Positions 17,401 to 56,578 are shown, counted from the first letter of the stretch. The stretch is 64,000 bases of DNA from a virus (IMGVR_UViG_3300042898_002309:1-64000); one strand, 5' to 3'. Notes: a model not told the origin generated them from the sequence alone. A program made the numbers and translations.

Positions 17401-17711
17401 TTTACACAGTCTTGTAGTGCATCAAATAATAATTCATTAGGTACAACTCTATATGTAGTATCATATATAGCATCAGATATATATGCTTTACTATTTGTAT
17501 TTGATTGTTTTTTATGTTTTTCAGTATCTATAGTAAATAATAATTCATCTGGAGCAGGTAATAGTCCATATTTAATTCTAGCATACTCTGTAAGTTTTTT
17601 ATTTATTATATTAAACTTATCAGTATTACCATCTATAATAGCTCTTACATCTGTAATATATTCTTTTTTAATTAAATAATCTAATGTATTTGATTGTACT
17701 ACACACTTCAT
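11451..17711 (-). CDS. giant virion ejection/cargo protein (GNAT-like, HExxH peptidase-like, LysM and hydrophobic C-terminal region)
   Basis: 2086 aa immediately downstream of the vRNAP; FQRQGLAT..Y, LHEFGHP, HTVEATDTLESISEKYSI.V..L...N; hydrophobic GVSIFLFSVLGGLLFAY. Confidence 0.8.
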   Translation of the reverse strand: MKCVVQSNTLDYLIKKEYITDVRAIIDGNTDKFNIINKKLTEYARIKYGLLPAPDELLFTIDTEKHKKQSNTNSKAYISDAIYDTTYRVVPNELLFDALQDCVNAYEEKNERALGLTDAFEETEDESKIKLEFSSAYGDNGYNLDIIKDNIKVGTVNYELDNSIATVGAVKINEDFQRQGLATDTYNILGDSLADQDILLRSGELNSLSKGLWNKLVEQNRAQEVTKGVYEYIPTKESEPRFMRASVEGEQFLTLDAEVSQKARATEVAEILADRLSKNLKTSYQIITEAEAKQILKNRVISYNGEPAFFFGGIVYFVGDNFNLETALHEFGHPLIGAIRVENVKLFNNLFTQVKSTTEGQAIIEKVKRLYPELTTDSPLFMEEVIVHALQQAAYDKITNTPQSEGFVSFIKNLLYSIKQIFRSFFSNTQNISKINESTTLGELADMMVSKDFEYQTDLVTDEDIAMFSRYTNARVKILTKNVSENAMQSAIDNFYASTSSMLNSAKKFSKKSNLYPMLQKTLFIEGTNELLPAIKKSLTPYQSIVDTGKASKDEIIEEVIESELRRIKDMTNKSINFVSSLEITNNIIKNIYKDLLDIQKDKNFGERSTLSVLGIYRTNLSNYIEFVDDTVELFKEDFNLDSSNALSNLLSEMNTNAKSAITLLQKIYKDSSVDFYRTYTAYMQEFLDDKLKKDLGNALKNKLTAEELEDFYDKVVSGNIADEDMAKIIAKGVEKKYINDFISEYNYLKIDELKLRDILSGNAKDVSWFNRFLESYTSSNDPIVGGLAMYIQNIKTDAQLKTLNETEVFRGKLEPILKANNINYNNTAQVADLISSRDEVLGYDEKGEVVKKEIFTLKNEWKGYRYEQAKLQNDYSKALETKDKEAIATAAAALKQFKKDYMYDKYTKIVLDADDIFNESPVHRLAWLTRKQALEDYNSELSIFSTELERFEKYSSAQALWRKYQQLYELNYIDGSPKVDDPENNIYDLSIALILREHKEKTSDFYESVAKEGSLQTSYNEFINSIIAEGVSKEVFNEMNAKWIRQNTRVAYSETYYTRKKELITRLKELQDKKTDKSEFNTGEAFSEIYDLLFSFRDSQGQPIPSELKAERIQKIKELQQKINDSKFAEQKTSKLTKAQASELNEYINIIKSKTETLSDEQKLRYLKLIKENTPDGLTALESAEIQGIYSELAEISSKIPTEYYMETMNYYLTQILGKGETSETTVDDLINSESFKDLLSDDTKFRNWFFNNHVTKKRYSRTGDIDIYFERLACYSVSVPNNEEDYIKTKLINPQTGTEFTINGLPNSRHTEFRIKNDPKYRTIPIGEDWKDYIGTIKDNAGNYLPRPYKKGETNSAKDDRFVDYDYLKLKAANNDQYKLIETIKEYYIKFQNDAALGSRLWYDLPRYGKKGMLENLQAGALSDKAKALKGSWDYYWQKMIGKSNDDYELGLNYDAKKNLVTTDMQGNEISYVPVTGTYNLDIEKTSKDFLPGIFQYIQSINMQAKLIESAPLLNSILSVLEDPKNGLKNINKQSRTINKITGKLVNVNKNKGDTYNRLEQVRSLVERELYGRKIVGIEESNPWLHKMSNFMLSAAGRATLAINVPSDLKNRYGQIVQNLIEASGGKYVSLKSMALARPWAAKTMLEWSAVGIYARGSQSLNSQIIQSFDAFFKTEKQFGENLSRTRAKDTLDGSWMYSFRKFGEMEAAMQLFGGFMHHQYVDQITSTGKVVPIRYIDAWELDKDGVLSLKKGINPEWGNKTIYHTVEATDTLESISEKYSIPVDELKAKNRISKNENLIEGSELVIAQSVKFKQFKNKFQTISRRLYGVYDDFGQAEGNKYFIYRMFYFMRKWTTSMFTNRFGADLSKENRWGRRYDWGLGETSRGYYISGIVSLYKLVKSAGKYYPYMSEEDKIDTKKMISEGVSIFLFSVLGGLLFAYDPDDDERWEKIKNRSDAFGTEGFKMNGFITNHMLNLLLQVGAETSAFVPLPGLGFDDYNNFISVTSTSFGSTLTLYAKIIEDIFMMVAGKDAAYYQIESGPYSWQKEGQAKIKSHILKTIGITGRTGDVETLIKNYERYSSKI

Positions 17712-17714
17712 ATC

Positions 17715-20700
17715 TTAACATTTAAACGGATCTTCTTCCTCTGTAAATAAATTATCAATTTCTGCATCACTAATTCCTTGCTTTTCTGCAACTAAATCAA
17801 GCATATCTGTAAACATAGTTGAATTAGGATTTATATATCCAAATTCTTCATAAAGTCTACGTGATAAATATACAAATAATTCTTGAGGCATGACATTTAT
17901 ATCTCCATATCCTTTAGTAGAAAAAGCAATTTTGTTTCCTGCTTCAATTAATTCTTTCATGTTTTGAATTGCTTCTTCCCATTTATCTTTAACAACAAAG
18001 TATTTTGATGCCGGTATTGTAGCTAAATTATCAACTGGATTATTTAAAGCAGTTATTAATGCTATATTCATTCCTTTTGCTGCTTTATTAATAAAGCTTT
18101 GACCTTTGAATTGTTTTGATGGATCTCTTAACTCTAAATCAGTTGTACTATTTATGAATACTGTAGTTGGATTAGATTCAACTAGATTTTTATAGTGTAC
18201 ATTTGTTAAATCCCCATCATCATATTTAAAAATAAAATCACTAATAGTAGGTTCTAATGTGTATTCAGATTTAGTTACCTTTTTTTCTTGGTTAAAATCC
18301 ATGAAATAATCTTTAAATCTGCTTTTTTCAAAATTACTTATACTATTTTGTTTATTAAATACTTTATAGTATTCATCTAAAAATGCAAGTCCTTTTTCTT
18401 CATTATCAAGTAAACTCATAAGTTTATTTTTTTCTTGCTCAATAACATTAATAAAAGGTGTATAGTCTACTATATTAACAAAATTAAACTTGGTTTTATT
18501 TATGCCAGATTGTAAAAATGCATATAAAGGTAATTGTGCAAAAAAGTCTGAAATGTATTGATTTTCTTTTTCATTTGCTGATTTTTTAATCTTAGGATTA
18601 GCTAAGTCAAGTAAATTTTTATGATATATATTTGAAAGTGAATTAGTATAATCTTTTTGATTAACATAAATATTAAACATTTTATTATCCTTATCAGAAT
18701 CTGATTTCATAACATCAAGTACATCATAATCAAGTCTTAACTTAGGATTTTTAGTTAAAATATTACTTAGTCTAATTGCAAATGCTGACTCAGTATTTTT
18801 AAATAAATGACTTGGATTAAAAGTATTTGATAATGCTTTATCTGCAAGTATTTTTTCATATGCTAATCTAACTTGTTTTTCATATGGTAAATCTTTTTTG
18901 GATTCTTTAATTTTTTTTAATTCACCTACAAACTCATTTGTTTTACTTATTTCAGAAAAAGGTGATATGCTTCTTAAATATTCTCTTTCAGCTACAAATC
19001 TAAAATACTCTTCTTTATTAGAGTTTCCATTATTCATGAAAGTAGAAATAGGAAGTGCATATAAACCTTTACTGTTATAACTTAATTCATCAGTTGCTGA
19101 TTTTGACCATGATTTATTTTCAAATTCTTTTTCAAGTGTAACTTTATCAATATACATAGTTGGTATACCAGATTTATTCTTTTTTACAAATGCACCAAAT
19201 TTTGGTAAATTAGCAAATTCTACTGGTATTGTTTCTTCAACATTATATGACTTATAAAATTTATCTATGTTGTACTTCCTTAATGTATTTTGTAGTATTA
19301 ATGATATCATATCATTTCTGAATGTATCAACATATAAATCTTTTTTATTTACCCCAAATGTTTTTTCTAATGAATTTCTTATATCTTGGTTATTAATTAC
19401 CATCCATTTAGTAATTAATGGGTGATATCTCATTTTAAATAAAGGTCTACCAATTTGTAAAGCCATTGGGCCATTAAAGAATGAACTAGTAACAGAGTCA
19501 TTAATCATTTTCCATAATAATGTCTGATCAAGTTTTGTCTCATCTTTTAAATTTTCTAATGATGACTCAGTATCTTCTATTTGACTAAATGATGTCTTTA
19601 AACTAGTATCTGCATTTGCATTTAATTTTAATTTTTTAACACCATTCATTTGTTGTTCAATTTCTAAATAATGTAAAAACATTAATTTAGATAATTCTGA
19701 ATTAGCTGCTTCTGGATCAGTTCTGCTATCTTTAATTAAGTTAAGCATTTCATTTTCTGTAAATTCAGGAATTGCTTTATCATCAAAATATTCATCAGCT
19801 AATTTTGTTGTAACTGAATATCTTGCATCACTTTTTATTTTTTGATTAAAGTGTTTAGCAATTACATTTCTTGATGCATTAGATGGAATATAATTAACTG
19901 AGTCAGCTGCTTTACCTAATGGTTCAGCAAATGTACTTTTAGCAACACGTTGTTCTTCTACATATTCTTTTACTAATGGTTGAGATACAAAATAAATTGC
20001 TTCTTTAACAGGTACACCTGCCTTAAGTAAATAAAGTAAAATTGGTGCTACTTCAGAGTTACCTTGAATAAAGAATATCCATGCATCTTTCTCAACATCT
20101 ACCCATCCATTTATTGCTTGAGCAAATAAATCTGCTATTTTATTTATATTATCAGCATCATATCTATTAGATAATGATACTACTTCTTTACCATAATCAA
20201 TAGAGTCTTTTTCATTATTAATAAGAGTATTGTGTTTTAAAAATAACCTTACATCTCTTGGTATTTTTTCTTTACCATGTATATAAGTAGATGGCATTGA
20301 TGCACCAAGTGAATTAAATAATGTATGAAATGTATTTTCAATTGCTCCAAGTCCTAATGTTTTCTTACCTACTACATTAGATTCATGTTTATAAATATTA
20401 TATAATGATTCTAATACTCTTGTAGGACTTATAACTGATGCATATTTTCCTGTTTCCTTATCTTGCTTAATGCTTTGATTAGGTTGGTCACTCATCATAT
20501 TAGCTTTTGGATCATAATCCATTACATATTGTGCTAAACTATCTGCAATTCCTTTTAGTAAATAAGTACCATTTGGTCTAATTAAAGATGCATAGTTTTC
20601 AGGTAATGCAAGTATGTTTTTAATATCTTGTATTAATTCATTTTCTAATGCAGCTTTTTGTAATTTAAATATTTTTGCTAATGGTTCACCATTTGCTTTA

Positions 20701-23700
20701 GCTTCATTTACAGCAGCCTCTAATTCAGTATGACTTGCATAAGTTCTTTTTGTATATTCACCTGACTCAGATACATTAGGCATAAAGATTGTCATCTTAT
20801 CAATATCAAAATCTCCTCCAGACTTAGCTACTATTTCAGTTGGTGCTACTATTATATTTCCTGCTTCAGCCGGTAAGAAATGATACACTTCCATAAACTC
20901 CATAGAGTTAAGACCCTGTACTGGAATCCTTACACCTACCATTGTAACTGCATCCCGGTTATCAGCCATTTCTAACCATTCATCATCTTTAATAAGATCA
21001 TTAAGTTTATCAATAGTACCAATAGTATTACCTGCTTTATCTTTAAGATTTAATAAATTAATGAAATCACCTTGAAGTGAAACCATAACTTTCATACCAG
21101 CAGTAAAACCATCAGCATTTTTATGATATGTAGGTAAGAAGTTAGACCCAACATATTTTTTAATATCAGCATCAGTAGCATTCTTAAGTTTACCACCATC
21201 AAATACTCCTTCATACATTGCTGCAGATACTTGTACAAGTGCTTCACCGTGTACTTTTTGTTTAATTAATCTTTTGTTTATTACAGATAAGATTAATTTT
21301 TCAATTTTAGAAGCCTCTGGATGTAATGATAAGTCAAATTTTAATTCACCATCTTCTGTAGTAGTAATAAATTCAATTAAGTGATCACCTAATACATCTT
21401 CTTTTTCAAGATTAGCTCTAATAAAACGTGCTAGTTTTTCAGTACTTTCTTTATCTACAGGTGTATATTTACTATTACCATTAGTATCTGTTGTTTGCTC
21501 AAATCCAATTTCATCAAGTAACTCAAGTTTTAACAATGATGATAACTCAGATACATGATTAATATAGTTAAGTACTTTATTATTTGTAATTTGAGTTTCA
21601 TCAGTAGATGCTATGATACCTTTTTCATATAAACCTTCAAGAATAAGTTTTCTTAACTGAGTAGAGAATATTGTTTTTTCTTTATATACTTTATTAATCT
21701 CAGTTTGATTTTTTAAATATTCTACAAATGCAACATTATTAGTAAGTTTAGCATTTAAATCAATTGAACCATTTTTATCAGTAATTATATCACCTCCTGA
21801 TTCATTAGATGAAATGTGTGCAATTTTTGAACCTGTTCCAAATATAACATAATCAGTTTCATTTTTTAACATTAATTCATGTAATGCATTTAACTTAGCA
21901 CCTTTAATAACAGATGGAATAAGTGGAGCAAGAGAGAACTTATGAAATGATGTTACTGTTAATCCTGTAGATTCTATATTACCAAAATACTGTAATTTAT
22001 ATGGTGGAAAAAACTCAACTATATCTCTAGCATTAACTTCTTCTTCATTAACAATTTTTCTATATAATTCTTCTTGATCATCTGACCAGTTACCTTCAAG
22101 TTTTTTAAGCATACGGTATGTATCAAAAGCAATATGTCCTTGACCATCACCTTCTTTCATTCCTGTATATTCTTTTATTTCAGTATCAGCCATTTTATTA
22201 GCATAGTCTACTTTTTCTTTTTCACTTAAAGTATCATTATTTTTTAATCTTTCAGTCCAGTCTTCATGTAATGCTTCTCTATATTCATCATAGTATACAG
22301 ATTTATCAACTACTTTTTCTTCTATAATAGCAGTATTTAAAGTACCATTATATACACGTTGTTTAAATCCTCTTTTTTCAGAATATAAGTTTTTAAATAA
22401 TGGGCCATTAATAAAACTTTGAGCTCTTAAATCAGTTCTAAAACCTCTACCTGGAGATGTTAAACCTGCATTACGTTTATGAAACTCTTCTTTATCATGA
22501 TTAAATTGTGCTAAATCACCATATGTAAGAATAACTGTTTCATAATTATGTATCCATGAGTTATAAGTATATGCTTTTACTAATACTTCATCAACTTGTT
22601 GTCTTGATAATTCAGGAGAATCAACTATTTCAACAAGAGATGAATCAATATATCTTGTTTTTTGTAATCTATTGTAATTTGCTTGAGTTTGTTTTTCAAA
22701 ATATGTATTTACATCTTTTCTTATTTTCTCAAGTAAAGCATCATCAGTATCTAGATATTTAATTAAATCAGATTTAATTGCATATAATTCATCTTTAGTA
22801 CTTTGTGTTAATACATCATCAAAAGCTGTAAATACTGATCCTGCTAATTTTTCTTCACCATTTTTAGTTTTTACTTTTCTATTATAACCTGCCCAGTTAG
22901 ACATGTTTTTTGCACCAGTAAGAGACTTATTATTAATGTTTGCATTAAATCTATTTATTCTTTCATGTTCTCCTGCAAGATATTTAAGCATTATATTAAA
23001 TCCTTCATTTGCACCTTTGTTTAAAGAATTAGGTTTAAATGCACTGATATCAACATATAGGTAATCAGCTTTTTTACCATCATATGTTTTAATTTTATCA
23101 ATAGATACACTTTGTGACATTTGCTTAGAGGCATGTCTCATAAATTCTTGTACACCTCTTAACAACATTGTATTCATTTCTTGTAAATACTTTGTTGTTC
23201 TATCAGATGAACTAGTTGTTACACCATTTGATTTATTTGAACCAGTTGTTAATAATTCTGTACCTGATACATTTTTAATATCTATTTCAGCATTTGGTCT
23301 CTTTTTTCCATAGTCAGGAGATAGAGGATCTAAAATAAATAAAGAATTTAATAATACAGAGTATTTAGCATGTGGATTATTATTATCATTTAACCATCTC
23401 ATGTGACGGTATCTTTTATTAATATCTACAGTATCACTTGTTAATTCAGTAAAATTATCAACTTTATTCATAGCAGCCATTCTACGTGTTAATGTACTAT
23501 CCATAAAGTGTTCAAATACACGGTTGCCTTCTGGAGTTAATACACTAAAGTTAGAGAAACTATTTGAGAACATATTTTGAATCTCAGCAAGTGCTCTTAA
23601 ACGTGCTCTTACTTCTTCATTACCTGATATAGATTTTTTATCTTTTATTAATACATCATCTAAACCATTTAATAAATATTGTATAGGTTTTTCTGCAAAA

Positions 23701-26700
23701 TTTTGTGCTGCAAGTTTTTCTTCTTCAGTACCTGATACTGCAAATTTATTTACTATTTGTAATATATTAAATATACGGTCAATACCATAATTAGAAGAGA
23801 ATCTTGGAGTTGCCATAATTTTTTCAATCTCCATACTCTCTTGATCCATTTCAATACCAATTGCTTTTAAAAACTCTTGAGCATATTTAGCTTTAAATAC
23901 TCCTTCCTCATTACCAAATCTTTTTAATATTTTAGGTATGTCAATAGAATTTACTAATAGGTCATTAGTTTTTATAAACTCATTAGATTCTAAATCTGAA
24001 TTAATTAAATTATTTGTCCATTCATTAATAACTTTATATACATCAAAACTAGCATTAGCTAATCTTGATTCATATGTTGCTATCTCAGGTATTAAAGTAT
24101 TTGTTGCTCTATCAAATTGCTTTTTTTGAATAATAGTTTTATTAATATTTAATTTTACATATGGTATTCTTGGTTTTTTAAAGTCTTGCCAAAAATTAGT
24201 CTCTGTATCAAACTCACTTACTGTACCTACATTACCAGGATTAAATGAAAATGGATTAGATAATACATCTAATAGTTGAGCAAATTCAACATAGTTTTCT
24301 CTATATTTAGAAATAACATTATACATATCAACAGGATCTAATTGACCCTGTAATACTCTTGCAAGTTTATTCCATATTTTATCTACATTTTCTAATTCAT
24401 CAAAACCTAATGCATTTTCTACTGGTACCAATTCTCCAGTTGAAGATTTAGTCATCTTAAATATACCTGCAAGTAACATCATTGTTTGCTCACTTGCTAA
24501 TGATTTAGATGACATAATATTACCATTAGTAGATTCTTTTACAACTCTAGTTTGGCCAATTTCTGAAGCATCATCTTCTAGTTCAGTAAATGTATCTTTT
24601 AATACATTGAATCTTGTATTTTCAATATTAAATGCAACTACACCTTTTTTAGTTTCACCATCTAATGATTTTTGTATATCACCAAAATTGTCAATTACTT
24701 TATTTAATAGAATTACTTTACCTAGTAATGCTTCTTCTTTAAAGTAATCAGGTTCTTCAGCTGTAGCATTATCTAATGTAGTTTTTTCTAACTGAGAAGT
24801 ATATGCATCTACTCTTTGTTGAATTTTAACTTTAGCAATTTTATATAATTCAGTTCTATTTTGTGGATTATGAAAAATTCTTTCAGCACCATTAGTAACA
24901 TTTTTAGAAGTGTTATATGTTTTAATTATAGAAGCTATAATACTATCTATAGATTTACTTACTAAACTTGCTTCATCAATGGTAAATACTGATTGATCAA
25001 ATGTATTAATAGTTTTAGATCTATTTAATACATCAAAACTTGTCCATATATTTTTAAGAGAAGGTTGTAAGTCAATAAACTCACCTTTATATAACTTATC
25101 ATAATATTCTTTAACAGATGCAATATCACGTGGTCTTAACATATCACGTCTAGTAATTTTACCAAACATCTTTCTTAAGAAATCAAGCATCTTTTTAAAT
25201 ATTCTACCAATTGGCCCAGTAAATTTACCTTGTCCTTTAGCATATGATCTAAAGTCTTCTGCAAGTACTTCTTCAATATCTAAATATGATGAATTTTTCC
25301 ACTTGTCCTGTTTCTTCATTGTATCATATAACTCTTGTTTTTCTTCAAGAGTTAAAAATAATTGAGAAAATGCATGCCAAGCTTCATGGTATAAATCTAC
25401 TGAAGTACCACCATCTGCTTCATATAATGTAATACCAAATCCTGACCAAGAGGCAAATGCATTTGAGTTAACAATAGTTGTAATTCTTTCAAGTGAAATA
25501 TGATCTTTTAATGGAGACTCTGACCACCATTTTTCTACATTTGCAATATCTTTTTTCTCAAAGAATTTACCAAACAGTCTTGCAAAAGTTTTACCTCTTA
25601 ATAAACCACCAATGTCATTGTTTGTTATTATTTTAAACTCCTCTTCATCACTTAAATCTTCTGCTTTAGTTTTTGCTTTAGTAGTTTCAGCTGTAGTTAC
25701 ACCAAATCTAGATAAAAATGCTTTTTTAGTTTTGCTATCTTTATTATCTTTAGTTCTAAACATCCATTGCTTAGGTGCATTAACTTCAACAGTTAAACCT
25801 AATTTTTTAGCAGCAATAGTTGCAGCTTCAGCAACACCAGATTGACCACCAGTTACAACTTTAGTTATAGGTTTATCAAGTGCTTCATTTAATTTTTCTA
25901 ATAAGTCAAGTACATATCCATTTATTTTTTCTTGAGATTTTAAATCTGCAAGATTATCACCTGTAATATGTACTTCTGTAGCCTTAAGTTTATTTAATTG
26001 AGTGGCAGTTTTATCTACCATTGCTTGTGAAGGTTTAATAATTACTTTAGGTAAAGTTACGGGTACATTTTTTTGACCCGCTTGTTTTTTAGTTGCAGCA
26101 GCAGTACCTTTAGTAAAGTCTCTTCCAATATTTATTGTAGCATCTGTTGAGTCAATATTAGATCCGTTTAACTCTTTATAATCCTTATTAGTTGGATTAA
26201 ATTTTACACCTCCTTCATTAATTACTGTTTCTAAATCATCTTCTGTTGTTTCTCCTTCAGTAAATTCTGTAACTGGAAGATTAGATAATACATCTTCAGG
26301 TATATCAAATCTTAAATATGAATTAAAACCTGATTTTAAACTCATTGAGTCTTTACTATATTCAATTTTAATATATGGTTTTACAAAATCAAAATAGTTT
26401 TCTTCTTTTTCAGTAATCTTATCCCCGGTAATAATATAATCAGTAAAAGATCCATTTTTTAAACCTTCATTAGAATAACTAATATTAGCTGCATAAAAAG
26501 TATTTTTATTTGTAATCTTATTTGTAATATGTTTAGCTTTTAATAAATGATTTTTAATTATTGTGTATGCCTCAGGTTTTGATAAATCAATTTTACGATA
26601 GCTTGATGGAGTGTCATCTGATTGTAAATCATCATAATTAGGAATAAGTTTTACTTCAAGATATTCTATACCTTCTTGATCTTCTTTTACTTGAATATTA

Positions 26701-28124
26701 ATTTTATTAGAATCAATTGCATTACTTAAAAAGTGATCAGTATATGCTTTTCTTCTATTAGCATCTAATGGTTGACCATTTAATTTAGCTTGTGTAGTAA
26801 GTACTGTAGCAATTTTATCTGCTAAAGATTCTGGCATATCACCTCTTTGTAATGTAACAGGAATATCCATTGAAACACCTGCTCTATCACGTGATATTGT
26901 TACAGTTGCAAAACCAGACTTTTTACTACCTTTTACTGTATTAATTGTTATGTCTTGTAAATCATCTTCAGTTAAATCTGTTTGAGATAAAGGAACATAT
27001 TTAGTATCAGTAATACCAAAACTTCCACTTACAATTGGTAATGTAATTACTTCTTCTGGGTTATTAAGTACTTTTTGTCTTAACTTGTATAAGTTGTTAA
27101 TCTCATCTTCTTGTTGTTGTTTCTTTTGAGCAATTAAATCAAAGTAATATTTTTCATCAAATACTAATCCTGCATCTTCTTGTTGTGTACGTATTGTAGC
27201 AACTATATCTTTTGGAGAAGCAAGTGTTTGGTGTCTTCCAGATTTTGAAGTTAAACTTAATTTACCATCAACTTTAGTTATATCTCTAATATTTTGATAT
27301 ACCATTATACCGGTATCTTCAGTAGTTATTTTACCTTCATTATCAAAATATAATATATTACCTTCTTCATCAGATATAAGTGCTATTACACCTCTATAAA
27401 GAGGATTAGCATCTAACCATGCTTTATCAGTTGGAGTTAATTTTTCTTTTACAGATTGTGATTGTACTACTCTTAATTTTAATTTTTCACCATTATAAAC
27501 AACATCATCAGTATTTAATAATCTTTGTCTTGTTATATATGTAATGTTTTGAATTACACTATATATTAATGCTTTTTCTGGGTCTTCAAAATTTCTATTT
27601 TCATCTGTAATAAATTCAGGATTTATAGCTACTGCTTGTTGTGGAACAGTCATATATGCTGATACTGCTTTTTGACCTTCAAATTGTTTCTCAGTCCATA
27701 TTAAATTTTCCTCAGTACCATCAATTATATCAAAATTGTATTGATTAGTATTATGGTCCATTATTATTTCTTGTACTTCTTCAAAAGACTTTTCTTCAGG
27801 TGTAACATATTTTAATACATTATCTAAAGATTTAGAAAACTCATCTCCTAAATCAGCTAAATCATCAAGTGAAAATAATTTTTTATCTCTTAATTCTTTA
27901 AGATATTTTTTAACACGGTCATCCATACTAACCAATGTCAGTATATCTGGTACAGCTTGGGCATATATTAGTGCTTTGCTTTCATCAACACCTTCATATA
28001 CTTCTTTAATTAAAGTTTTTATATTAAATACAGGAAGTTTATCATCAACTATTCTATCATGAATTTCACCATATATTACTTCATATAAATCAATTATCTG
28101 TTCTTTATTTAATGCACAAGCCAT
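17715..28124 (-). CDS. virion-packaged DNA-dependent RNA polymerase (crAss-like, double-psi beta-barrel), multidomain
   Basis: 3469 aa; catalytic GGDFDIDK (DFDID at 20799-20813), RIPVQG, DGQG and STQLRKL motifs; N-terminal HEAWH. Confidence 0.92.
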   Translation of the reverse strand: MACALNKEQIIDLYEVIYGEIHDRIVDDKLPVFNIKTLIKEVYEGVDESKALIYAQAVPDILTLVSMDDRVKKYLKELRDKKLFSLDDLADLGDEFSKSLDNVLKYVTPEEKSFEEVQEIIMDHNTNQYNFDIIDGTEENLIWTEKQFEGQKAVSAYMTVPQQAVAINPEFITDENRNFEDPEKALIYSVIQNITYITRQRLLNTDDVVYNGEKLKLRVVQSQSVKEKLTPTDKAWLDANPLYRGVIALISDEEGNILYFDNEGKITTEDTGIMVYQNIRDITKVDGKLSLTSKSGRHQTLASPKDIVATIRTQQEDAGLVFDEKYYFDLIAQKKQQQEDEINNLYKLRQKVLNNPEEVITLPIVSGSFGITDTKYVPLSQTDLTEDDLQDITINTVKGSKKSGFATVTISRDRAGVSMDIPVTLQRGDMPESLADKIATVLTTQAKLNGQPLDANRRKAYTDHFLSNAIDSNKINIQVKEDQEGIEYLEVKLIPNYDDLQSDDTPSSYRKIDLSKPEAYTIIKNHLLKAKHITNKITNKNTFYAANISYSNEGLKNGSFTDYIITGDKITEKEENYFDFVKPYIKIEYSKDSMSLKSGFNSYLRFDIPEDVLSNLPVTEFTEGETTEDDLETVINEGGVKFNPTNKDYKELNGSNIDSTDATINIGRDFTKGTAAATKKQAGQKNVPVTLPKVIIKPSQAMVDKTATQLNKLKATEVHITGDNLADLKSQEKINGYVLDLLEKLNEALDKPITKVVTGGQSGVAEAATIAAKKLGLTVEVNAPKQWMFRTKDNKDSKTKKAFLSRFGVTTAETTKAKTKAEDLSDEEEFKIITNNDIGGLLRGKTFARLFGKFFEKKDIANVEKWWSESPLKDHISLERITTIVNSNAFASWSGFGITLYEADGGTSVDLYHEAWHAFSQLFLTLEEKQELYDTMKKQDKWKNSSYLDIEEVLAEDFRSYAKGQGKFTGPIGRIFKKMLDFLRKMFGKITRRDMLRPRDIASVKEYYDKLYKGEFIDLQPSLKNIWTSFDVLNRSKTINTFDQSVFTIDEASLVSKSIDSIIASIIKTYNTSKNVTNGAERIFHNPQNRTELYKIAKVKIQQRVDAYTSQLEKTTLDNATAEEPDYFKEEALLGKVILLNKVIDNFGDIQKSLDGETKKGVVAFNIENTRFNVLKDTFTELEDDASEIGQTRVVKESTNGNIMSSKSLASEQTMMLLAGIFKMTKSSTGELVPVENALGFDELENVDKIWNKLARVLQGQLDPVDMYNVISKYRENYVEFAQLLDVLSNPFSFNPGNVGTVSEFDTETNFWQDFKKPRIPYVKLNINKTIIQKKQFDRATNTLIPEIATYESRLANASFDVYKVINEWTNNLINSDLESNEFIKTNDLLVNSIDIPKILKRFGNEEGVFKAKYAQEFLKAIGIEMDQESMEIEKIMATPRFSSNYGIDRIFNILQIVNKFAVSGTEEEKLAAQNFAEKPIQYLLNGLDDVLIKDKKSISGNEEVRARLRALAEIQNMFSNSFSNFSVLTPEGNRVFEHFMDSTLTRRMAAMNKVDNFTELTSDTVDINKRYRHMRWLNDNNNPHAKYSVLLNSLFILDPLSPDYGKKRPNAEIDIKNVSGTELLTTGSNKSNGVTTSSSDRTTKYLQEMNTMLLRGVQEFMRHASKQMSQSVSIDKIKTYDGKKADYLYVDISAFKPNSLNKGANEGFNIMLKYLAGEHERINRFNANINNKSLTGAKNMSNWAGYNRKVKTKNGEEKLAGSVFTAFDDVLTQSTKDELYAIKSDLIKYLDTDDALLEKIRKDVNTYFEKQTQANYNRLQKTRYIDSSLVEIVDSPELSRQQVDEVLVKAYTYNSWIHNYETVILTYGDLAQFNHDKEEFHKRNAGLTSPGRGFRTDLRAQSFINGPLFKNLYSEKRGFKQRVYNGTLNTAIIEEKVVDKSVYYDEYREALHEDWTERLKNNDTLSEKEKVDYANKMADTEIKEYTGMKEGDGQGHIAFDTYRMLKKLEGNWSDDQEELYRKIVNEEEVNARDIVEFFPPYKLQYFGNIESTGLTVTSFHKFSLAPLIPSVIKGAKLNALHELMLKNETDYVIFGTGSKIAHISSNESGGDIITDKNGSIDLNAKLTNNVAFVEYLKNQTEINKVYKEKTIFSTQLRKLILEGLYEKGIIASTDETQITNNKVLNYINHVSELSSLLKLELLDEIGFEQTTDTNGNSKYTPVDKESTEKLARFIRANLEKEDVLGDHLIEFITTTEDGELKFDLSLHPEASKIEKLILSVINKRLIKQKVHGEALVQVSAAMYEGVFDGGKLKNATDADIKKYVGSNFLPTYHKNADGFTAGMKVMVSLQGDFINLLNLKDKAGNTIGTIDKLNDLIKDDEWLEMADNRDAVTMVGVRIPVQGLNSMEFMEVYHFLPAEAGNIIVAPTEIVAKSGGDFDIDKMTIFMPNVSESGEYTKRTYASHTELEAAVNEAKANGEPLAKIFKLQKAALENELIQDIKNILALPENYASLIRPNGTYLLKGIADSLAQYVMDYDPKANMMSDQPNQSIKQDKETGKYASVISPTRVLESLYNIYKHESNVVGKKTLGLGAIENTFHTLFNSLGASMPSTYIHGKEKIPRDVRLFLKHNTLINNEKDSIDYGKEVVSLSNRYDADNINKIADLFAQAINGWVDVEKDAWIFFIQGNSEVAPILLYLLKAGVPVKEAIYFVSQPLVKEYVEEQRVAKSTFAEPLGKAADSVNYIPSNASRNVIAKHFNQKIKSDARYSVTTKLADEYFDDKAIPEFTENEMLNLIKDSRTDPEAANSELSKLMFLHYLEIEQQMNGVKKLKLNANADTSLKTSFSQIEDTESSLENLKDETKLDQTLLWKMINDSVTSSFFNGPMALQIGRPLFKMRYHPLITKWMVINNQDIRNSLEKTFGVNKKDLYVDTFRNDMISLILQNTLRKYNIDKFYKSYNVEETIPVEFANLPKFGAFVKKNKSGIPTMYIDKVTLEKEFENKSWSKSATDELSYNSKGLYALPISTFMNNGNSNKEEYFRFVAEREYLRSISPFSEISKTNEFVGELKKIKESKKDLPYEKQVRLAYEKILADKALSNTFNPSHLFKNTESAFAIRLSNILTKNPKLRLDYDVLDVMKSDSDKDNKMFNIYVNQKDYTNSLSNIYHKNLLDLANPKIKKSANEKENQYISDFFAQLPLYAFLQSGINKTKFNFVNIVDYTPFINVIEQEKNKLMSLLDNEEKGLAFLDEYYKVFNKQNSISNFEKSRFKDYFMDFNQEKKVTKSEYTLEPTISDFIFKYDDGDLTNVHYKNLVESNPTTVFINSTTDLELRDPSKQFKGQSFINKAAKGMNIALITALNNPVDNLATIPASKYFVVKDKWEEAIQNMKELIEAGNKIAFSTKGYGDINVMPQELFVYLSRRLYEEFGYINPNSTMFTDMLDLVAEKQGISDAEIDNLFTEEEDPFKC

Positions 28125-28127
28125 GTC

Positions 28128-31100
28128 TTAACAAATTGGTGAGTTATTTTTTAATTTACTAAATCTTTGTAATTTAGTTTGTAATTGAGTTTTAATTTTT
28201 ATATCATCAAAAATACTTAAATCTTTTTTAATATCATCAAGATTGTTTTTAGTCTCAACTACTGCAGCAGTATCTTCTTCAGTTATTGCTACTGGTTCAT
28301 TAGTAATTTCATATGCCATCTTATTATGCTTTTTAAAATTATCTATTAATTCTTCATTTGTAGCAGTATATATTTTATTTGTAGTTAATAATTTAATTTT
28401 TACTTTTTTATCATTAACTTCACTTACTATAAATATATCTCCTCTTACACTGTCAAAGATAGCTTTTTTAGCAATGATATAATCATCTTTAGATAAATTT
28501 TTATCACTTACTTTAGATCCTAATGCAACTTGTTTTTCATTAAATTTTAATTCTATTGCATTAATTAATGCATTACTATCACCAGGTATATTTCCTTCAG
28601 TAACAGCAATCATAGCATTTGCATAAGCTATCATTAAGTCACTAATTTTTCTTGCACTTTGCATTGGTTGAAGCAAGTCATCAAATTTAGGAATAACAAT
28701 CTCACCTTCTTCATTTACATCAATTACAAAATCACCTAATGCACTAGATGATTTAATAATTTTTTTAGCATCTTCTATTGATGTTTCATCAGCTGTAGTA
28801 TCTGTAGTACTTAAAGCAGCTAGTTTATTTTCTATTGCTTCTATTTTATCTCTTATAATAGCACCGTTTTCAAAATCTAAAACATCCATTACTTCTGCAC
28901 TTTCTTTTTTTAATCTTTTTAATTCAATTTCTAATTCAGCTTTAGTATCTGTAGTAGGTGTTTCTTGCACAACATTTAATTGTGCTTGAAGTTCAGTAAT
29001 TTGTTGAGTAATTTGAGCAGCTTTTTCTAAATCACCCATTACATCTCTTTCAATAACTAACTCATTTTCTAATGAATTTATAAGTTTTTGTATTTCAGAT
29101 CTATCTTGTTCCTCTGTTTCAATATTGATATCCTCAATATTTTTTAATGGTACATATTTATCTACTGCATCTACTGGTACTAATTCTACAGTACTTTTAC
29201 CTTTATCTACAATTTCTGTTGCAAGTTTAGCTGATTTAATATAACCATTTACATCATAATTAAGTTCAATTGGTAATAATTTTATAGTAGCTTTTTTACC
29301 TGTCATATTATACAACAAGTTTTTATAAATAGTTTGTTGTGTACGGTATGCATATTTTTTACTAAAATTATTTGTACCTTCTTTATTAAAATTATCCCAA
29401 GTAGCTTTTTGTGCAGTTTTAATATCAATTATAGATATGTTACCTTTATTATCTACTACTAATAAATCCATTTCACCTGCAAGTCCAGTATCTCCTAAAT
29501 CTTTATCAAATACATTTAAGTTATTTGCATATACAGTATACTTACCATCAATTACATCATCTTTAATAAGAGTTAATATACCATCTTTTTGTCCTGTACC
29601 ATTTTCTTGTCCAAATAAACTATCAAATGCACCTTGACTCATATTAGATGGTTTAATTAATTTAACATCATTAAAGAAATCTCTTATTAAACCATCTATT
29701 AATGTACCAGAATCTGCAGCTGCACTATATGATAAATCATTAATAATACTAAAAACTGATTTTTCAGTAAATTCTTTTTCTAATGCAGTTTTTATTTTTG
29801 CAAATTTTATTTCATTAAATTGTTTAAAAGTTTTATTATTTTTTATTTCTGAATCAAGTCTATCTAAAAATGCTTTTAATTTTCCACTTTCTTTAATAGT
29901 AGTATCAGCTTCAATTTGCATATAATAACCAACAGCAGTTGTTGTTGCTTGATTTATATATGGGTCTTTACCAGTTTCTTCTTTTTCTATATCTACTACT
30001 AGTTTAGTTACTCTTTGTGGTTCTTTACCATTATCAAATATGTAACCTTTTTTAGTTTTAGTTGCAAGATCTTCAAGTGATTTAACATCTTTTCCAGTTG
30101 TACCATCAGTAAATAATACATCAATTTCATCTTGTCTTTCAAGTAAATTAGTATTAAGTAAGTTAACTATACTTTCAAGATTAGTTGTAGCTTTTCTTGT
30201 AGTTCTTATAAATCTAATATAACTTTGAAGTGCATTAATATCAGATTTAATATTATTAGCTTCTTTAGATTTTACTTTTGTTTTTGGTAACTTAGTTTTT
30301 AATATATTTAAAATACCTTTTAAATCTTCTACTGATAATTGATCTAAAGTTTTACTATCAAATGTATTTGCTATAGATTTAAACTTAGGTATTCTAGCTA
30401 TTAATTCTGGTTCAACATTTTCAGTACCTATTTGAGCATTGTTATATTGATCAATTAATAAACTTTGAGATCCTAACCAGTTTTGTCTTATTATTGCAAG
30501 TGCTGTTGCATCTTCATTAGGATATGTACTATTAGCAAATGTATCAAATTCTTTTTGTAGAATTACTTTAAGATCATCTGGTATATTACTCCAAGGAGTT
30601 GTAACTGTAACTCTTTCAGGAATTGCATTAACTTCTTCTACTGTACTTGGAGTTGCACCAGCTTTTTTAAAATCTTTAATGATACCATTGAATACTTCTT
30701 CATAGTCTTCATTAATTTTTTTAATAAGTGCTTGGTAATCTTTCCATGCATCAGTTGTTTCAATATCAATTACATCAACTTCTGGTTTTGATAATTCTTC
30801 TATAGTATCTTTTAAAGTGTTAATTTTTTCTTTAATAAGTTCAGGAAATGCAAATTTATATGATGCAACTACAAATGCTTGAGTAGTAGCTTCTTCTTGT
30901 GATAAACCATTTAAAACAGCTTCAGTAATTAAATCTTGAACAAATGGTGTTGCCTCTTCAACTTTTTTAGGATTTTTAAAATACTCTTCAACAAATAAAT
31001 TTATTTCTCCTTCAGTAGCTATTTCATTGTCTATTGCTCCATCAACTACAGCTTGTAATTCTTCAACATCAACATCTATTTTTTCAAGTTGTTCTATTAT

Positions 31101-41126: not shown

Positions 41127-43685
41127 TTATAAGTATTCTAATTCACCTCCATTAGCAATGAAGTCATCTATTTCTTCTTGAGTCATGTATTGAGTATCCT
41201 CATCATCATCTTCAATATTTCCACCAGTAGCATAAACTCCTCCACCATATTTTGAAACACCATTGAATCCCATTTTATTTGGTCTAAATAATCCTGAGTT
41301 AGGATCATAGTCTCCTTGATCATAAGCATTATTTATACCATAATTACTTTCAGCAGATGTTGCATTTGCTAACATTTGATTTTCTTGTTTATTAGCTCTA
41401 ACTTGATCAGTAATATTTGCAAAAGCATTACCTGCTAATAAACTTAAATCTCCAAGTCCTGCTTTATCAATATCCCAAGCTTGTTTATTTCTAAATTTTT
41501 GAGAAACACCTTCTTGATCTTCATATTTAATACCTTCATTAACATAGTTACCATCTGAACCCATTCTTACTGCTGGAGTTTCACCTGTTAATGGATTTTT
41601 TTTAGGTTGTGAAAATGGATTTTCTAATAAATCTCCAGGTTCAGACATTTTAAAATTTGTATTTCTTTTTTTAGTTATATTACCTTCAAAGTCAACACAA
41701 TCACCTTTATAATCTTTTGTTGAACCCATTGGACAATCATTTATACCAGTTTCAAAACCTTCTGCAGCTTTATACAATTCTGGTATAGATACATCTCCTC
41801 CATAAGCATATTGAGTATAATCAATTGGCCCACCATATGCTTTATATGCAGGTCCTTGATGTCTAATTAAAAAATCTTGATATGAATTTTGATCATCTGA
41901 TAAATTAGAATTTGTACTACCAGCTGCTAATGCTTCAATTTTTTTTGCTTGATCAATTTGTTTTTGATTTTCTGGTGTATTAATAAATTCAGATTCAGGA
42001 TTTGAATTTGTAAAATTATTATTACCAAGAAATCTATTTAACTGTCTATCATCTCTATTTTCTTTTCTTTGAGCTCTTGGACTTATAGGTGGATAATAAG
42101 GTTCATTACTAGTAACTAATGGACTATTTTCTGAAGATTCAACAAGGTTATTAGGTCCTTCATATCCAACTCCCCATGGTATTAGTTTAGCTCCAAGTTG
42201 TTGTATTCCTGGTATTTTTGTATTTACCATTCCTCTACCTAATCTTTCACCAAAAGTTTTACCTCTATATTGTTCATCACTTGGATCACCCATTGATGCA
42301 TTATTTACATTACCTTGACCTGGATTATAAGTAGGTACTTTAAATGAAGCAATTTTTGGTGTAGCTCCATAGTTATATGTCATCTTTTTAGGTCTACCAA
42401 ATATTCCATATTTATCTACATTAACACTTGATGGTAATCTACCTGCAAGATCTGGTCCTGTATATCTTTCACCTGATTGAGTATAGTATGGAGAACCAAC
42501 AGCTTTATTATATTGTTCACCTCTACTAATAATAGGAGATCTAAATATACCTTGTCCATATCCACCTTGATTACCTCTTTGTTGCATGTACTGTTGCATC
42601 ATATATTGTTGCATCATTTGTTGCTGTTTTTGGGCAGTAGTAGTATTTTGAGTAACTAACTCATCATATTTCTTTTTATAGTCTTCAGTATCTGCAACTT
42701 TTTGATCTTCAGGTCTTTCAACAAAATCTGATATACCATTTTTATTTACATCTACAATACTATTACCAGTACCTTGATATTTATATAATGATCCACCACG
42801 TTTAGCATATCTTTGATAATCTAAATCAGAATCTTGATACTGTTCATCCATTGATTCATTATCACCTCCTCCTATAAATTTATATAAACCTTGACCTGTA
42901 TTACCTCCATATTGTTCTAATGCTGCAATATCATTTTGAGTATACATGTTATCAGAAAAGATATGTCTTCTAGCTGCAGTATTTTTAGCTAAATGATCAT
43001 ATGGACTTTCAGTATCTATTTGTTCTTGATTTATACCACCATCTTGTGCATATGCACCAACTTGTGGATTACCATATATAGCATTATATTGTTCTTCAGC
43101 TGCTTGTTTTTGTTGTGCTGAATTAACTGATTCACTAATACCTTTAAAGAAATTACTTACATGTTGTTCTCTACCACCAAGTACATCATCTGCTCCTGGA
43201 GAAGGTGTATTTCCACCTTGAGCCATTTTTGCAAACTTAGTATATTGATTTATAAAACTTCTTTTACTTGGTTTAGAACCACCATATCTTGCAACTTCTT
43301 CTTCTTCTTCTGCTCCTGCTGTTCCATCATCAACTACACTATTGATTATATCTTGATTACCAGTAACATACATTTGTCTTCTTGATTCTTCTTCTGCAGC
43401 ATTTTGTTCATCAAGTATTTTTTGTTGTTCTAATACTTGTGCTTCTGCTAAAGCAATTTTTTGTTTTTTTGAAATATCACTTTCACCATATAAATCATCA
43501 GCTTCTTCAATATATTTATCTGCAGTAGTTTCATCAATACCAGCTTGTATTAACTCTTCTTTAATTGCATCAATATCATAATCATCTACATTCATTTTTT
43601 CAGCAATAAAATTTCTTATTAATTGCTCTTGAGTAGGTTCATTTGACTGACCACCTGCTTTATATATTCTTACTCTCTTTTTCAT
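41127..43685 (-). CDS. virion cargo protein, low complexity, many xxxGG motifs
   Basis: 852 aa; about 12 xxxGG motifs; C-terminus YMTQEEIDDFIANGGELEYL. Confidence 0.7.
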   Translation of the reverse strand: MKKRVRIYKAGGQSNEPTQEQLIRNFIAEKMNVDDYDIDAIKEELIQAGIDETTADKYIEEADDLYGESDISKKQKIALAEAQVLEQQKILDEQNAAEEESRRQMYVTGNQDIINSVVDDGTAGAEEEEEVARYGGSKPSKRSFINQYTKFAKMAQGGNTPSPGADDVLGGREQHVSNFFKGISESVNSAQQKQAAEEQYNAIYGNPQVGAYAQDGGINQEQIDTESPYDHLAKNTAARRHIFSDNMYTQNDIAALEQYGGNTGQGLYKFIGGGDNESMDEQYQDSDLDYQRYAKRGGSLYKYQGTGNSIVDVNKNGISDFVERPEDQKVADTEDYKKKYDELVTQNTTTAQKQQQMMQQYMMQQYMQQRGNQGGYGQGIFRSPIISRGEQYNKAVGSPYYTQSGERYTGPDLAGRLPSSVNVDKYGIFGRPKKMTYNYGATPKIASFKVPTYNPGQGNVNNASMGDPSDEQYRGKTFGERLGRGMVNTKIPGIQQLGAKLIPWGVGYEGPNNLVESSENSPLVTSNEPYYPPISPRAQRKENRDDRQLNRFLGNNNFTNSNPESEFINTPENQKQIDQAKKIEALAAGSTNSNLSDDQNSYQDFLIRHQGPAYKAYGGPIDYTQYAYGGDVSIPELYKAAEGFETGINDCPMGSTKDYKGDCVDFEGNITKKRNTNFKMSEPGDLLENPFSQPKKNPLTGETPAVRMGSDGNYVNEGIKYEDQEGVSQKFRNKQAWDIDKAGLGDLSLLAGNAFANITDQVRANKQENQMLANATSAESNYGINNAYDQGDYDPNSGLFRPNKMGFNGVSKYGGGVYATGGNIEDDDEDTQYMTQEEIDDFIANGGELEYL

Positions 43686-43745: not shown

Positions 43746-46700
43746 TTATTTGATTCTTTCTATGATATATCCTGCTTTTTCTAGTGCTTTAATTTCATCA
43801 TCATCTAAGTCATCTTCCCATGATTCAATATCACCACCATTTTTTTCTTGTTGTAATGCACCTACACCTAATGTTCCTGCAATTGGAGCAACTGCCCAAA
43901 CTTTATTAAATAACTTAGCAGCTGATTTTCCATTATCTTTTTTTATTATTTTAACAAACTGAGTATCTACTGGAGTATTTCCTAAAGCAACTTCTTTAAA
44001 CATTTTATCTGCTTGTTCAGGAGTTATTATATCATCAGGAGATAAATCAAAATATTTTCTAAGTTCCATTATTCTTGCCTGTACTTCTGTTGGGTCTGAT
44101 AAATAATCTATAAGTTTATCAACTTCTTTACTATTATTTATTTTTTTTCTTTCTTTAAGATAAGGATAATCAATTGCATCTTCAATAATTTTTTTTTGAT
44201 CAGTTAATTCTAAAGATTGTGCTTTTGTCCAATCATGTGTTAATTCATGTATTCCTGTACTTAATCTATTTTTAGGATCTAACCATCTTGAAACCCAATT
44301 ACCATGTCTTATAAATTGTGGTTTAGTATCTAAAGCATTAGGCTTAGTTTTAATTAATTTATCAACTTTAGGAATTTCAGATTCTAATTTATTTTTTGAA
44401 AGTGGAATATAAGTATTTTCAGGCATATTTAAAATTTCTCCTGGAATATCTTCATGAGTATAATTAATTCCTGCATTATCTTTATGAATATTAGGAAATT
44501 CAGTTAATTGCTCTATTATAGGATATTCTTGCAATCTTCCTGCAGGTTTATATCCACTAGTAAATTTAATTACTTCTTCTAAATTATGTTTTGCAATTGG
44601 TGAATTTTCAACTGTACCAAATACTGAATGATAGTTAGGTGATTTTAAACTTTCTTTATAACTATTAATAATTTTTTCTTGAGTTGCAGGATGACTCACC
44701 CATCCTTGCATCCAATTTTCAGCTTCTCTTAATGTTTTAAGTCTCTCTGGTGTTTTAGTTATAACATCATAAAATCTACCAGGTAATTTACCAATTCCTT
44801 TAATCATGTTAACAGCATTAGGAGAACCTGGTAATGTTTTACCAATTGCTTTAGTACCTTGATTTAAATATTTAGCACCTTGATTTATATCTTGAGCAAG
44901 AGATTTAACACCTTGTATAGCAGTTCTACCAGATCCTGGTACACCTGCAAATGCTAAACCTGTTTCTAAAAGACCTGTTGCATAATTACCTTTATGTAAT
45001 TCATTACCAGCATGACCACCCCAATATCCTGGATTAACTATATTAGCAAGATCAGAAATTTCAAATTGGCCTTTAGTTTGTCCTGTAGCTTTTAAATATT
45101 TATCATACTCAGGACTTTCAGTATTCATTAAACCTCTTCCCATTCCAGGTATATATGCTTGATTACCTGTTAATGCATTACCTGCCATAAGAATTGGGTG
45201 AGCAATAGCAGCTTGAGTTACATCTAAAGCTTTTTCAGCAAAAGACATTTTATTATATTTATTCCACTGTTCTTTTTCAAATGCTGCCTGTTCTTTTTTT
45301 CTTGCTTCACGTTTTGCAGTTTCTTGTGGAGAATTATAAAATGCTGCATTATTAATATCACTTACAACTTGTTTAGGTATTACTGTACGTGTATTATCAC
45401 TTACAGGTCCTCTAGGAATTGCATCATTTATTGCTTTTTGTTTTGCAAGTTTTTCTTTTGCAAGTTTTATAGCTTTTTCTTTATTAAGTTCTTGTTGATA
45501 TTTTTTTACAAGATCTTGCTTATTTAATTCTGGTGAGTCTGAATTTTTCTTTATATATTGTTGCTTATGATCTTGCATAAGTAAATTAAACTGAGGTGCA
45601 GGTTGCTCTAATGGTTTTTTATATACTGTTTTACCACCTTGTGCTTTATCTAATATACCTCCATTTTTAAATCCTCCTTCAATAGTTGCTGGTTGTAAAT
45701 GCCATTGATCTAATGCTGCACCAGTACCTATTGTTAAAGGTATAGCAGCTTTATATATATTAGGATTAGTCATGTCAAATTTACCATTATTTCTTAACAA
45801 AGATTTAATATTTTTTGGATTAATTATAGAATAGTTATTTTTATTAATTGGTGCACGCAAACCTCTTAGTACATCTCCATTAAATCCAGCATACATACCA
45901 GCATCTTTGATATTTTTAAAATTAACTGCATCATATCCTAATTTTTTAGCAATATCCGTAACTTCAGCTGTATCATATTTTTTCTTTGGCTTTATTCCCA
46001 AAACATTAAAATTTTCCTGACCAATTCTATTAATTAACTCATCATGATCAAGTTTTGTCCATAGTTTATTTTTAGCATCAAAAATTAATGGGTTTTTTGT
46101 TTTAGCAGCTAACTCATATCTTTTAGAAAAAGGATTTAATTTTAGTCTGTATGAATCAGCATCTTTAGGAGAATTAGCTAAATAAACCCCATCTTCTAAA
46201 TCACCTACTTTACCTTTTCTAAATTCTTGAATATTACCTTTATTAGAACCATGATATCCTGTAACATAGTTATCTCCAAAAGCATTTTTAAAGTTTTCAC
46301 TATTCTGTTGTACAAATTGTTCAGGAGTTCCTTTATAAGCAGAACCATCTGAATTTTTCATCCAAGTTCCATTAGTTTTAGTAGCTTCTTCTATTTTAGA
46401 ATACTCTTTTAATAAAGGTTCATCTGCAAGTATTTCTTTATTCCAATTACCCCAATTAATTTCAGACTGAAAAGGAGTTCTATAATCGTCTACTTTAGAT
46501 AATAAACCTGTTTCTGTTCCTAATGCTTTACCTAAATATTTAACACCTGGTTTTACACCTAATCTTACTGCATCATCAAGTAATCCTGAACCTGGTATAA
46601 ATCTTAATCCTTCTAAAAAAGCAGAACCATAATTACCCTTTCCTATATTTCTTACAACTTTATCTCCCGCATCAAAAAGATTTAATGTACTATTTAATGT

Positions 46701-56566: not shown

Positions 56567-56578
56567 AACATAATAATA

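Follow-up and report, generated by a model that had tools for sequence, protein, structure and literature searches.

Paired terminal cysteines at the protein breaks of a crassvirus virion RNA polymerase module suggest a head-to-tail, disulfide-linked ejection thread

Why do three giant proteins that are nearly free of cysteine (Cys) carry this residue precisely at the ends where one gene product gives way to the next? The question is raised by genes A, B and C of IMGVR_UViG_3300042898_002309, a 97-kb virus record of IMG/VR of which positions 1-64000 were analysed (the window, 64,000 nucleotides). Gene B codes for a predicted virion RNA polymerase (vRNAP; RNAP, RNA polymerase), gene A for a Cys-depleted cargo protein and gene C for an RNAP-associated ejection protein (Table 1). 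The best explanation for the placement of their Cys is probably a head-to-tail chain of reducible disulfides in the virion (A-S-S-B-S-S-C), to which a probability of about 0.6 is given on comparative evidence. The Cys observation itself is real and far beyond chance.

The initial annotation of this locus had reported, from a count by eye, that the few Cys of the three proteins face the gene junctions, with two more inside the third protein and none at the free ends of the trio. A script count agreed in every respect: one Cys was found in A, two in B and three in C, that is, 6 Cys per 7671 amino acids (aa), and the free ends (MADT... and ...SSKI) are devoid of this residue. Under random placement of 6 Cys in 7671 residues, the probability that all four three-residue end zones are hit is ~8e-12. 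The two internal Cys of gene C (102 and 1276) are lineage-specific. Apart from the neighbouring cargo-type genes (Table 1), other open reading frames (ORFs) of the window, including those of replication and tail proteins, contain 0.3-8.6% Cys, in contrast to the depleted A, B and C.

In tblastn searches, the middle of gene B finds phi14:2 g066 ('catalytic RNA polymerase subunit', E 2e-20), cr108_1 (E 9e-30) and many Crassvirales genomes, and only this catalytic part finds named crassviruses. Moreover, a hidden Markov model (HMM) of B built from relatives recovers phi14:2 g066 (E 2.1e-21) and crAss001 gp50 (E 1.2e-19). The alignment consensus of B, ...KSGGDFDIDKLT..., includes a catalytic motif of the DFDxD type, DFDID (consensus GGDFDIDK), whose residues D639, F640, D641 and D643 are invariant in 15 sequences, that of the window among them. 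These matches identify gene B as a predicted crassvirus vRNAP of the phi14:2 gp66 type, i.e., a two-barrel RNAP. An HMM of A, also built from relatives, matches crAss001 gp47 (E 2.7e-28) and gives no match to phi14:2 gp67; gene position and Cys pattern make gene A the counterpart of the latter protein. The corresponding HMM of C matches phi14:2 g065 and crAss001 gp49, and a LysM/transglycosylase region is present in gene C (LysM, E 4.6e-6). The phage collection gave no match to the region by megablast or to residues 1-200 of B by tblastn; Pfam and PHROGs were uninformative for both A and B, and no PDB entry was matched by B in phmmer. The module is homologous in B and C to the Crassvirales vRNAP modules of phi14:2 (gp67/gp66/gp65) and crAss001 (gp47/gp50/gp49), and in A to crAss001 gp47. 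It shares with both the DFDID motif of B, the location downstream of the muzzle and ring genes and the Cys pattern. The proteins of these two modules are packaged in the virion and presumed to be ejected, and virion presence and RNAP activity have been reported for the counterparts of B in both phages (10.1101/2020.03.07.982082; PMC10172136).

Conservation of the terminal Cys was followed at increasing distance from the window. A related-locus search with B as query returned 38 IMG/VR loci (33-49% identity), and in all of them the only Cys of A stands 0-9 residues before the C-terminus, B carries Cys at residue 3-5 as well as 0-7 residues short of its C-terminus, and one of residues 3-6 of C is a Cys. 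A non-redundant count covering 78 complete A, B and C proteins of these relatives (212,269 residues) gave 110 Cys (0.052%), 105 of which lie 10 residues or fewer from a junction end. Both sides of the break carry a Cys in 23/23 distinct A/B and in 22/22 distinct B/C junctions, and the free ends are again spared: Cys was found at the C-terminus of C in 0/22 and at the N-terminus of A in 1/22, the single exception being a likely start miscall. Near the C-terminus of B, a short motif, (D/N)PF, is also conserved (e.g., EEDPFKC). Protein C of locus L038 (20830-21219) is another apparent exception, in which an N-terminal piece starting with MAC lies in a separate frame, likely because of a frameshift. 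At a larger scale, a profile search of 1.84 billion cluster representatives retrieved 3136 B homologues, and the best 150 of them, mutually less than 50% identical, were counted. They contain 0.060% Cys, two being the commonest number per protein. The initial annotation had named the loss of terminal Cys in homologues as an outcome that would tell against its proposal. These residues are kept at every distinct junction of the window clade, and among the best 150 of the 3136 B homologues a Cys lies within 10 residues of the C-terminus in 145 and of the N-terminus in 123. The exceptions are mostly fragments, N-terminal fusions or doubtful starts.

The pattern has been found in three named families, Steigviridae, Suoliviridae and Intestiviridae, with phi14:2, crAss001 and crAss002 among the genomes that carry it, so that the conservation across Crassvirales on which the initial annotation had made its proposal depend is borne out in these families. 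In phi14:2, the only Cys of gp67 is its last residue, gp66 has Cys 3 and Cys 2179 of 2180 residues, and gp65 has one Cys, at residue 3. In crAss001, gp47 has a sole Cys at position -2, gp50 has Cys at 5, 1334 and -8, and gp49 has a sole Cys at 5. The same terminal pattern is seen in cr85_1, cr128_1, DAC15, cr112_1 and the bajarodcaudo virus.

More informative is the relation between the Cys pairs and the breaks of the polypeptide, since the module is divided differently among crassviruses. Two-protein modules have one pair. For example, the Suoliviridae encode one giant B-containing protein of 4460-5801 aa, in which the B region starts at about residue 1000 (as mapped by HMM); this protein has a C-terminal Cys and no N-terminal Cys, and the next gene (C) has a Cys at residue 3-5 in the 4 genomes whose record includes that gene. 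In the Intestiviridae, a protein of ~2000-2500 aa with Cys at -1 is followed by a protein of ~4300 aa that starts with MSC and has no C-terminal Cys. A related-locus search with an Intestiviridae query returned near-identical contigs only. In crAss002, the Intestiviridae pattern holds after correction of a probable start miscall: the annotated start of gp33 (L076, 21242-21421) is probably 32 codons too early, and an internal MSC (residues 33-35) and the similar sequence around it align by eye with the MSC start of cr11_1 gp66. Four-protein modules, by comparison, have three pairs. In L037/L067, L058, L059, L060, L063 and L065 an extra protein of 242-655 aa, with no Cys other than residue 3 and the final one, stands between B and C; an apparent gap in L037 turned out to contain this Cys-capped protein. 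L068 likewise has a four-protein module, here through a division of A into two, and a new Cys pair marks this break as well.

Fusions show the reverse change. In the sister genomes L061, L062, L064 and L066 the extra protein is fused to B, and the only Cys of the fused ORF are residue 5 and the last one, both junction Cys being gone. The fusion is real according to blastp, in which the last ~120 aa of the extra protein align end to end with the fused ORF (E 1e-11 to 4e-18). In cr1_1, likewise, no Cys precedes residue 4026 of the fused ORF. Interruptions of the gene that are not protein ends behave differently again. The group I intron breaks of cr108_1 gp054/gp053 (L041, 19790-20108; RF00028, 80 bits) and of bajarodcaudo virus 1 (L077, 21611-21700 and 22304-22491; 47 and 32 bits) have no Cys on either side. 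These introns of the vRNAP gene sit just after the catalytic region, their exons are annotated as separate proteins, and that of the bajarodcaudo virus carries a homing endonuclease ORF. The position of the break within the protein also appears to vary. Window B is ~1000-1300 aa longer than its counterparts in phi14:2 and crAss001, with the A/B break seemingly elsewhere in the domain series. In fact, a domain in the N-terminal part of window B matches the C-terminal part of crAss001 gp47 (E 2.8e-10), so that the A/B break apparently lies at a non-homologous position and the Cys pair seems to follow the break rather than the domain. The Cys pairs thus covary with the breaks. A gain of Cys on both new ends at fission and a loss of both at fusion is what would be expected if the two residues pair together, and a pairwise link is suggested as the simplest reading of the Cys numbers. 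The link from C-terminus to N-terminus put forward in the initial annotation gains support accordingly from pairs that appear at new splits, are gone in fusions, are absent at intron pseudo-breaks and persist where the partner genes are not adjacent.

According to the mechanism proposed here, A, B and C would be parts of a unit that certain other crassviruses encode in a smaller number of large, fused proteins. The pieces would be packaged in the capsid and would pass through the tail channel into the host in an at least partly unfolded state, and it is this passage that is proposed to have purged A, B and C of Cys. The residues kept flank each break (within ~10 residues), one close to the end of the upstream protein and one close to the start of the downstream protein, and each pair would form an intermolecular disulfide in the virion. 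Because the Cys stand only a few residues from the chain ends, the product would be topologically a single thread with very short side stubs, which could go through a narrow channel unfolded or partly so, as the fused proteins of other crassviruses have to. Stoichiometry and order would be fixed in the linked chain, which would behave as a fused polyprotein in packaging and ejection, and the removal of all other Cys would prevent wrong cross-links. Finally, the reducing cytoplasm would cleave the disulfides and free the subunits without a protease. We infer the disulfide chemistry, its presence in virions, the ordered ejection and the reductive release from the comparative pattern described above. 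The chances are about even that the mechanism amounts to a Crassvirales-wide rule, in which the ejected RNAP polyprotein has been cut at varying points into 2, 3 or 4 genes and every cut mended post-translationally by a terminal Cys-Cys disulfide.

Several observations on related virions are consistent with this mechanism. The virions of crAss001 contain intersubunit disulfides, and its cargo proteins gp47, gp49 and gp50 are not visible in the capsid and must partly unfold on exit (PMC10172136). In the study of phi14:2, the protein was kept in dithiothreitol or tris(2-carboxyethyl)phosphine (DTT/TCEP; 10.1101/2020.03.07.982082). In addition, a predicted complex between the last 200 aa of B and the first 200 aa of C scored 0.36 (best control, 0.01), with runs agreeing in at least 48% of contacts and a predicted local distance difference test value (pLDDT) of at least 70 for the partner. 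This lends weak support. The mark used was reached by 58/80 solved complexes and 2/110 mismatched pairs, and scores of 0.60 or less comprise only 7 of the 80 solved complexes and both passing mismatches.

A number of points weigh against the disulfide chain. All support for the bond is comparative, and the Cys counts would also fit a B protein cyclised on itself together with an A-C link, or homotypic dimers. Since the cytoplasm in which virions assemble is reducing and the hosts are often anaerobes of the gut, oxidation in the capsid is uncertain; the disulfides of crAss001 could even come from air oxidation during purification. About 7 full-length-looking B homologues of the 150 counted have no N-terminal Cys. 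Among these, P0085 seems to owe the absence to a truncated start call, and a related-locus search with it returned relatives only, all with Cys pairs. In IAS virus, the two vRNAP pieces gp055 and gp056 (L045, 17352-17362) overlap by 11 nucleotides (nt) and have Cys on one side of the break only, the downstream piece being without an N-terminal Cys; this is probably a frameshift, a sequencing or an annotation break and not a real protein end. Furthermore, the Crevaviridae and the epsilon and zeta groups lie outside the sample.

Four other explanations have been weighed against the disulfide chain, one of which is suggested by the window itself. The ORFs of A, B and C lie in a common frame, and TGT TAA GAY ATG NNN TGT G is found at each of the two junctions, which raises the idea that the Cys are a by-product at the nucleotide level, either of a translational-coupling cassette (TGT TAA GAY ATG NNN TGT) or of a read-through polyprotein with a CX4C motif. 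However, spacers in the window clade vary in length between -11 and +12 nt, each of the relative frames 0, 1 and 2 is represented, as are overlaps, both TGT and TGC are used, and the Cys of relatives stand 0-9 residues from the end. Moreover, in Steigviridae of the crAss001 type (not phi14:2), gene A is convergent, on the strand opposite to B and C and not adjacent to them, and both Cys are kept. The opposite-strand A and the varied spacer, frame and codon indicate that the pattern is not nucleotide-level. Programmed read-through and an in-frame cassette are thus rejected in general, and as a general explanation the by-product is refuted and has a negligible probability, although local coupling could operate in this one genome. 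Neither the shared frame nor the near-identical junction DNA of the window is conserved in relatives; the likeness of the two junctions may be due to translational coupling at this locus or to one junction having been copied recently. A split intein was also rejected, as the stretch after the upstream Cys is only 0-9 residues long and that before the downstream one 2-5, and no Pfam intein is found in A, B or C.

The remaining alternatives accept the Cys pattern as a feature of the proteins and differ in what the residues would do. A metal ion or another non-disulfide chemistry could bridge the Cys across each break; the same pairing evidence applies to it, and acidic residues often precede the C-terminal Cys of B, as in EEDPFKC. 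Such a site would have two thiolates per junction, with no conserved His, Cys or Asp partner in the four sequence contexts, and two-coordinate thiolate metal sites are rare. The terminal Cys total 2, 4 or 6, two per break, which leaves no shared Cys4 node, and one Zn(Cys)4 node shared by the four ends was rejected because modules with 2 and with 6 terminal Cys exist. The metal bridge is therefore considered improbable. A little less improbable is a role unconnected with linkage, in which the Cys would serve as a signal for packaging, chaperoning or proteolysis or as a redox sensor, their two-sided placement being incidental. The evidence for a bond is indi­rect, and some of the Cys have short conserved motifs beside them (in B, (D/N)PF close to the C-terminus), and both points would suit this role; the Cys, however, stays while the surrounding sequence differs between lineages, and the signal would have to be needed solely at break-facing ends and be lost on fusion. 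The least unlikely of the alternatives, though unlikely still, is that the Cys form disulfides with other partners, be it A-A, B-B or C-C, a cyclised B, or proteins of the portal, the capsid interior or the tail, and so would act as anchors and not form a head-to-tail chain. Several pairings are compatible with the Cys counts, the muzzle and ring proteins of the window carry many Cys, and the structural proteins of crAss001 are Cys-rich with intersubunit disulfides (PMC10172136). Simultaneous gain at fission and loss at fusion would nevertheless be unparsimonious under other pairings, and the free N-terminus of A and C-terminus of C are without Cys, although anchoring would not forbid one there.

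With regard to redox chemistry in crassviruses at large, internal Cys in the module number 10 in IAS virus (L045), 26 in cr130_1 (L072) and 17 in MH552500 (L074), the terminal Cys being kept in the three of them. The higher number of internal Cys in animal-gut crassviruses than in the window clade of uncultured IMG/VR phages (~0.05%) would fit the redox rationale, with a possible link to oxygen exposure. Small thioredoxin-family proteins are encoded in the replication block of several genomes (L041, 31067-31336; L043, 12091-12336; L074, 14396-14665; L077, 16125-16370), and they may serve ribonucleotide reductase or may bear on virion thiol chemistry. A search of the window's own record for an Erv1/ALR sulfhydryl oxidase gave no match, and the control genomes were without a match too.

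The neighbourhood of A, B and C agrees with their assignment (Table 1). Muzzle and ring genes, located upstream on the same strand, place the module in the Crassvirales tail/cargo block, and these external virion proteins are not depleted of Cys. Between them and gene A lie further cargo-type ORFs, which have Cys depletion in common with A, B and C and yet stand outside the Cys-paired chain. One of these products, of 852 aa, is probably the counterpart of the crAss001 cargo protein C1 (gp45). Close Cys pairs of the same kind as the one it contains are found in crAss001 gp45 (L046, residues 390/398) and phi14:2 g069 (L039, 369/378), and DAC15 gp080 (L044) has two of them (211/219 and 273/281); the pair may be a conserved intrachain disulfide or a metal hairpin. 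For the three Cys-rich ORFs upstream of the ring gene, no family match was obtained in Pfam.

Table 1. Features of the window, with their Cys content and the matches on which names are based.
Feature	Positions	Strand	Details
Gene A, Cys-depleted cargo protein, 2116 aa	28128..34478	-	1 Cys, the C-terminal residue (codon 28133-28131)
Gene B, predicted virion RNA polymerase, 3469 aa	17715..28124	-	Cys 3 (28118-28116) and last residue (17720-17718) only
Gene C, RNAP-associated ejection protein, 2086 aa	11451..17711	-	Cys 3 (17705-17703), 102, 1276
A/B junction	28116..28133	-	TGT (Cys2116) TAA GAC ATG GCT TGT (Cys3 of B)
B/C junction	17703..17720	-	TGT (Cys3469) TAA GAT ATG AAG TGT (Cys3 of C)
Upstream cargo-type ORFs, 1044, 1144, 2507 and 852 aa	34483..51269	-	0 Cys in the 1044-, 1144- and 2507-aa ORFs; Cys651/Cys663 only in the 852-aa ORF
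852-aa cargo-type protein	41127..43685	-	Sole Cys are the close pair Cys651/Cys663
2507-aa ORF	43746..51269	-	0 Cys; PF18760 at residues 1672-1831 (ART-PolyVal ADP-ribosyltransferase domain)
Crassvirus muzzle protein, 1765 aa	within 51269..57595	-	19 Cys; PF25731 (crAss_MUZ), E 2.2e-31
Tail ring protein 1, 338 aa	within 51269..57595	-	11 Cys; PF24228 (CrAss_Ring_1), E 2.9e-12
Three ORFs, 431, 477 and 521 aa	59018..63359	-	Cys 2.8, 4.4 and 8.6%; upstream of ring gene

The logic of the proposed thread is not without parallel. In diphtheria toxin, the clostridial neurotoxins and ricin, one disulfide keeps two chains together while they cross the membrane, and reduction in the cytosol then parts them. 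The chains of these AB-type toxins are produced when a single precursor is nicked, and their Cys lie away from the chain termini, whereas here separate gene products, up to four of them, would be linked in a row; the two systems share the proposed logic and have no homology. Another parallel is found in the Schitoviridae (N4-like phages), whose giant ejected vRNAP and operon partners are, like A, B and C, almost Cys-free. Suppression of Cys is established for the ejection proteins of this family, and passage through the envelope has been proposed as its reason (PMC11445570). The N4-type vRNAP, however, is a single polypeptide of an unrelated polymerase family with essentially no Cys, whereas the module of the window is split and keeps Cys at the breaks. 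The fused forms of the crassviruses themselves have the same module content in fewer, larger ORFs, with a peptide bond where split forms have a Cys pair. The three proteins have indeed been described as fused in some phages, and proteolytic cleavage was supposed (10.1101/2020.03.07.982082); in that preprint the words cysteine and disulfide occur zero times. In the atlas of crAss001, disulfides are reported only in tail and portal-vertex proteins (PMC10172136). A full-text search of the crAss-related literature found no description of terminal Cys, and many subscription papers lie outside it, so that an earlier mention is possible. The pairing of terminal Cys and the covalent link thus appear to be new for the crassvirus module, within the literature searched.

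The finding bears on the most abundant phages of the human gut, since crassviruses store and inject very large proteins (~150-280 kDa each in crAss001). This cargo is invisible in the cryo-electron microscopy atlas of crAss001 (PMC10172136), and a Cys pair that tracks the breaks provides a concrete and directly testable model for its stoichiometry, order and release. The pair is also useful in annotation, as it helps to set genuine protein ends apart from breaks that are due to introns, frameshifts or wrongly called starts. If the model is true, the covalent link would make split and fused forms alike, and genes of the module could hence be split and fused freely, and the subunits would be set free on reduction in the cytoplasm, a switch that needs no protease. 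Finally, if the rule holds across Crassvirales, these phages would inject one redox-cleavable thread of 5,000-8,000 residues as a unit, to be released and perhaps activated in the cytoplasm, and this would represent a previously undescribed way of ordering and coupling protein ejection.

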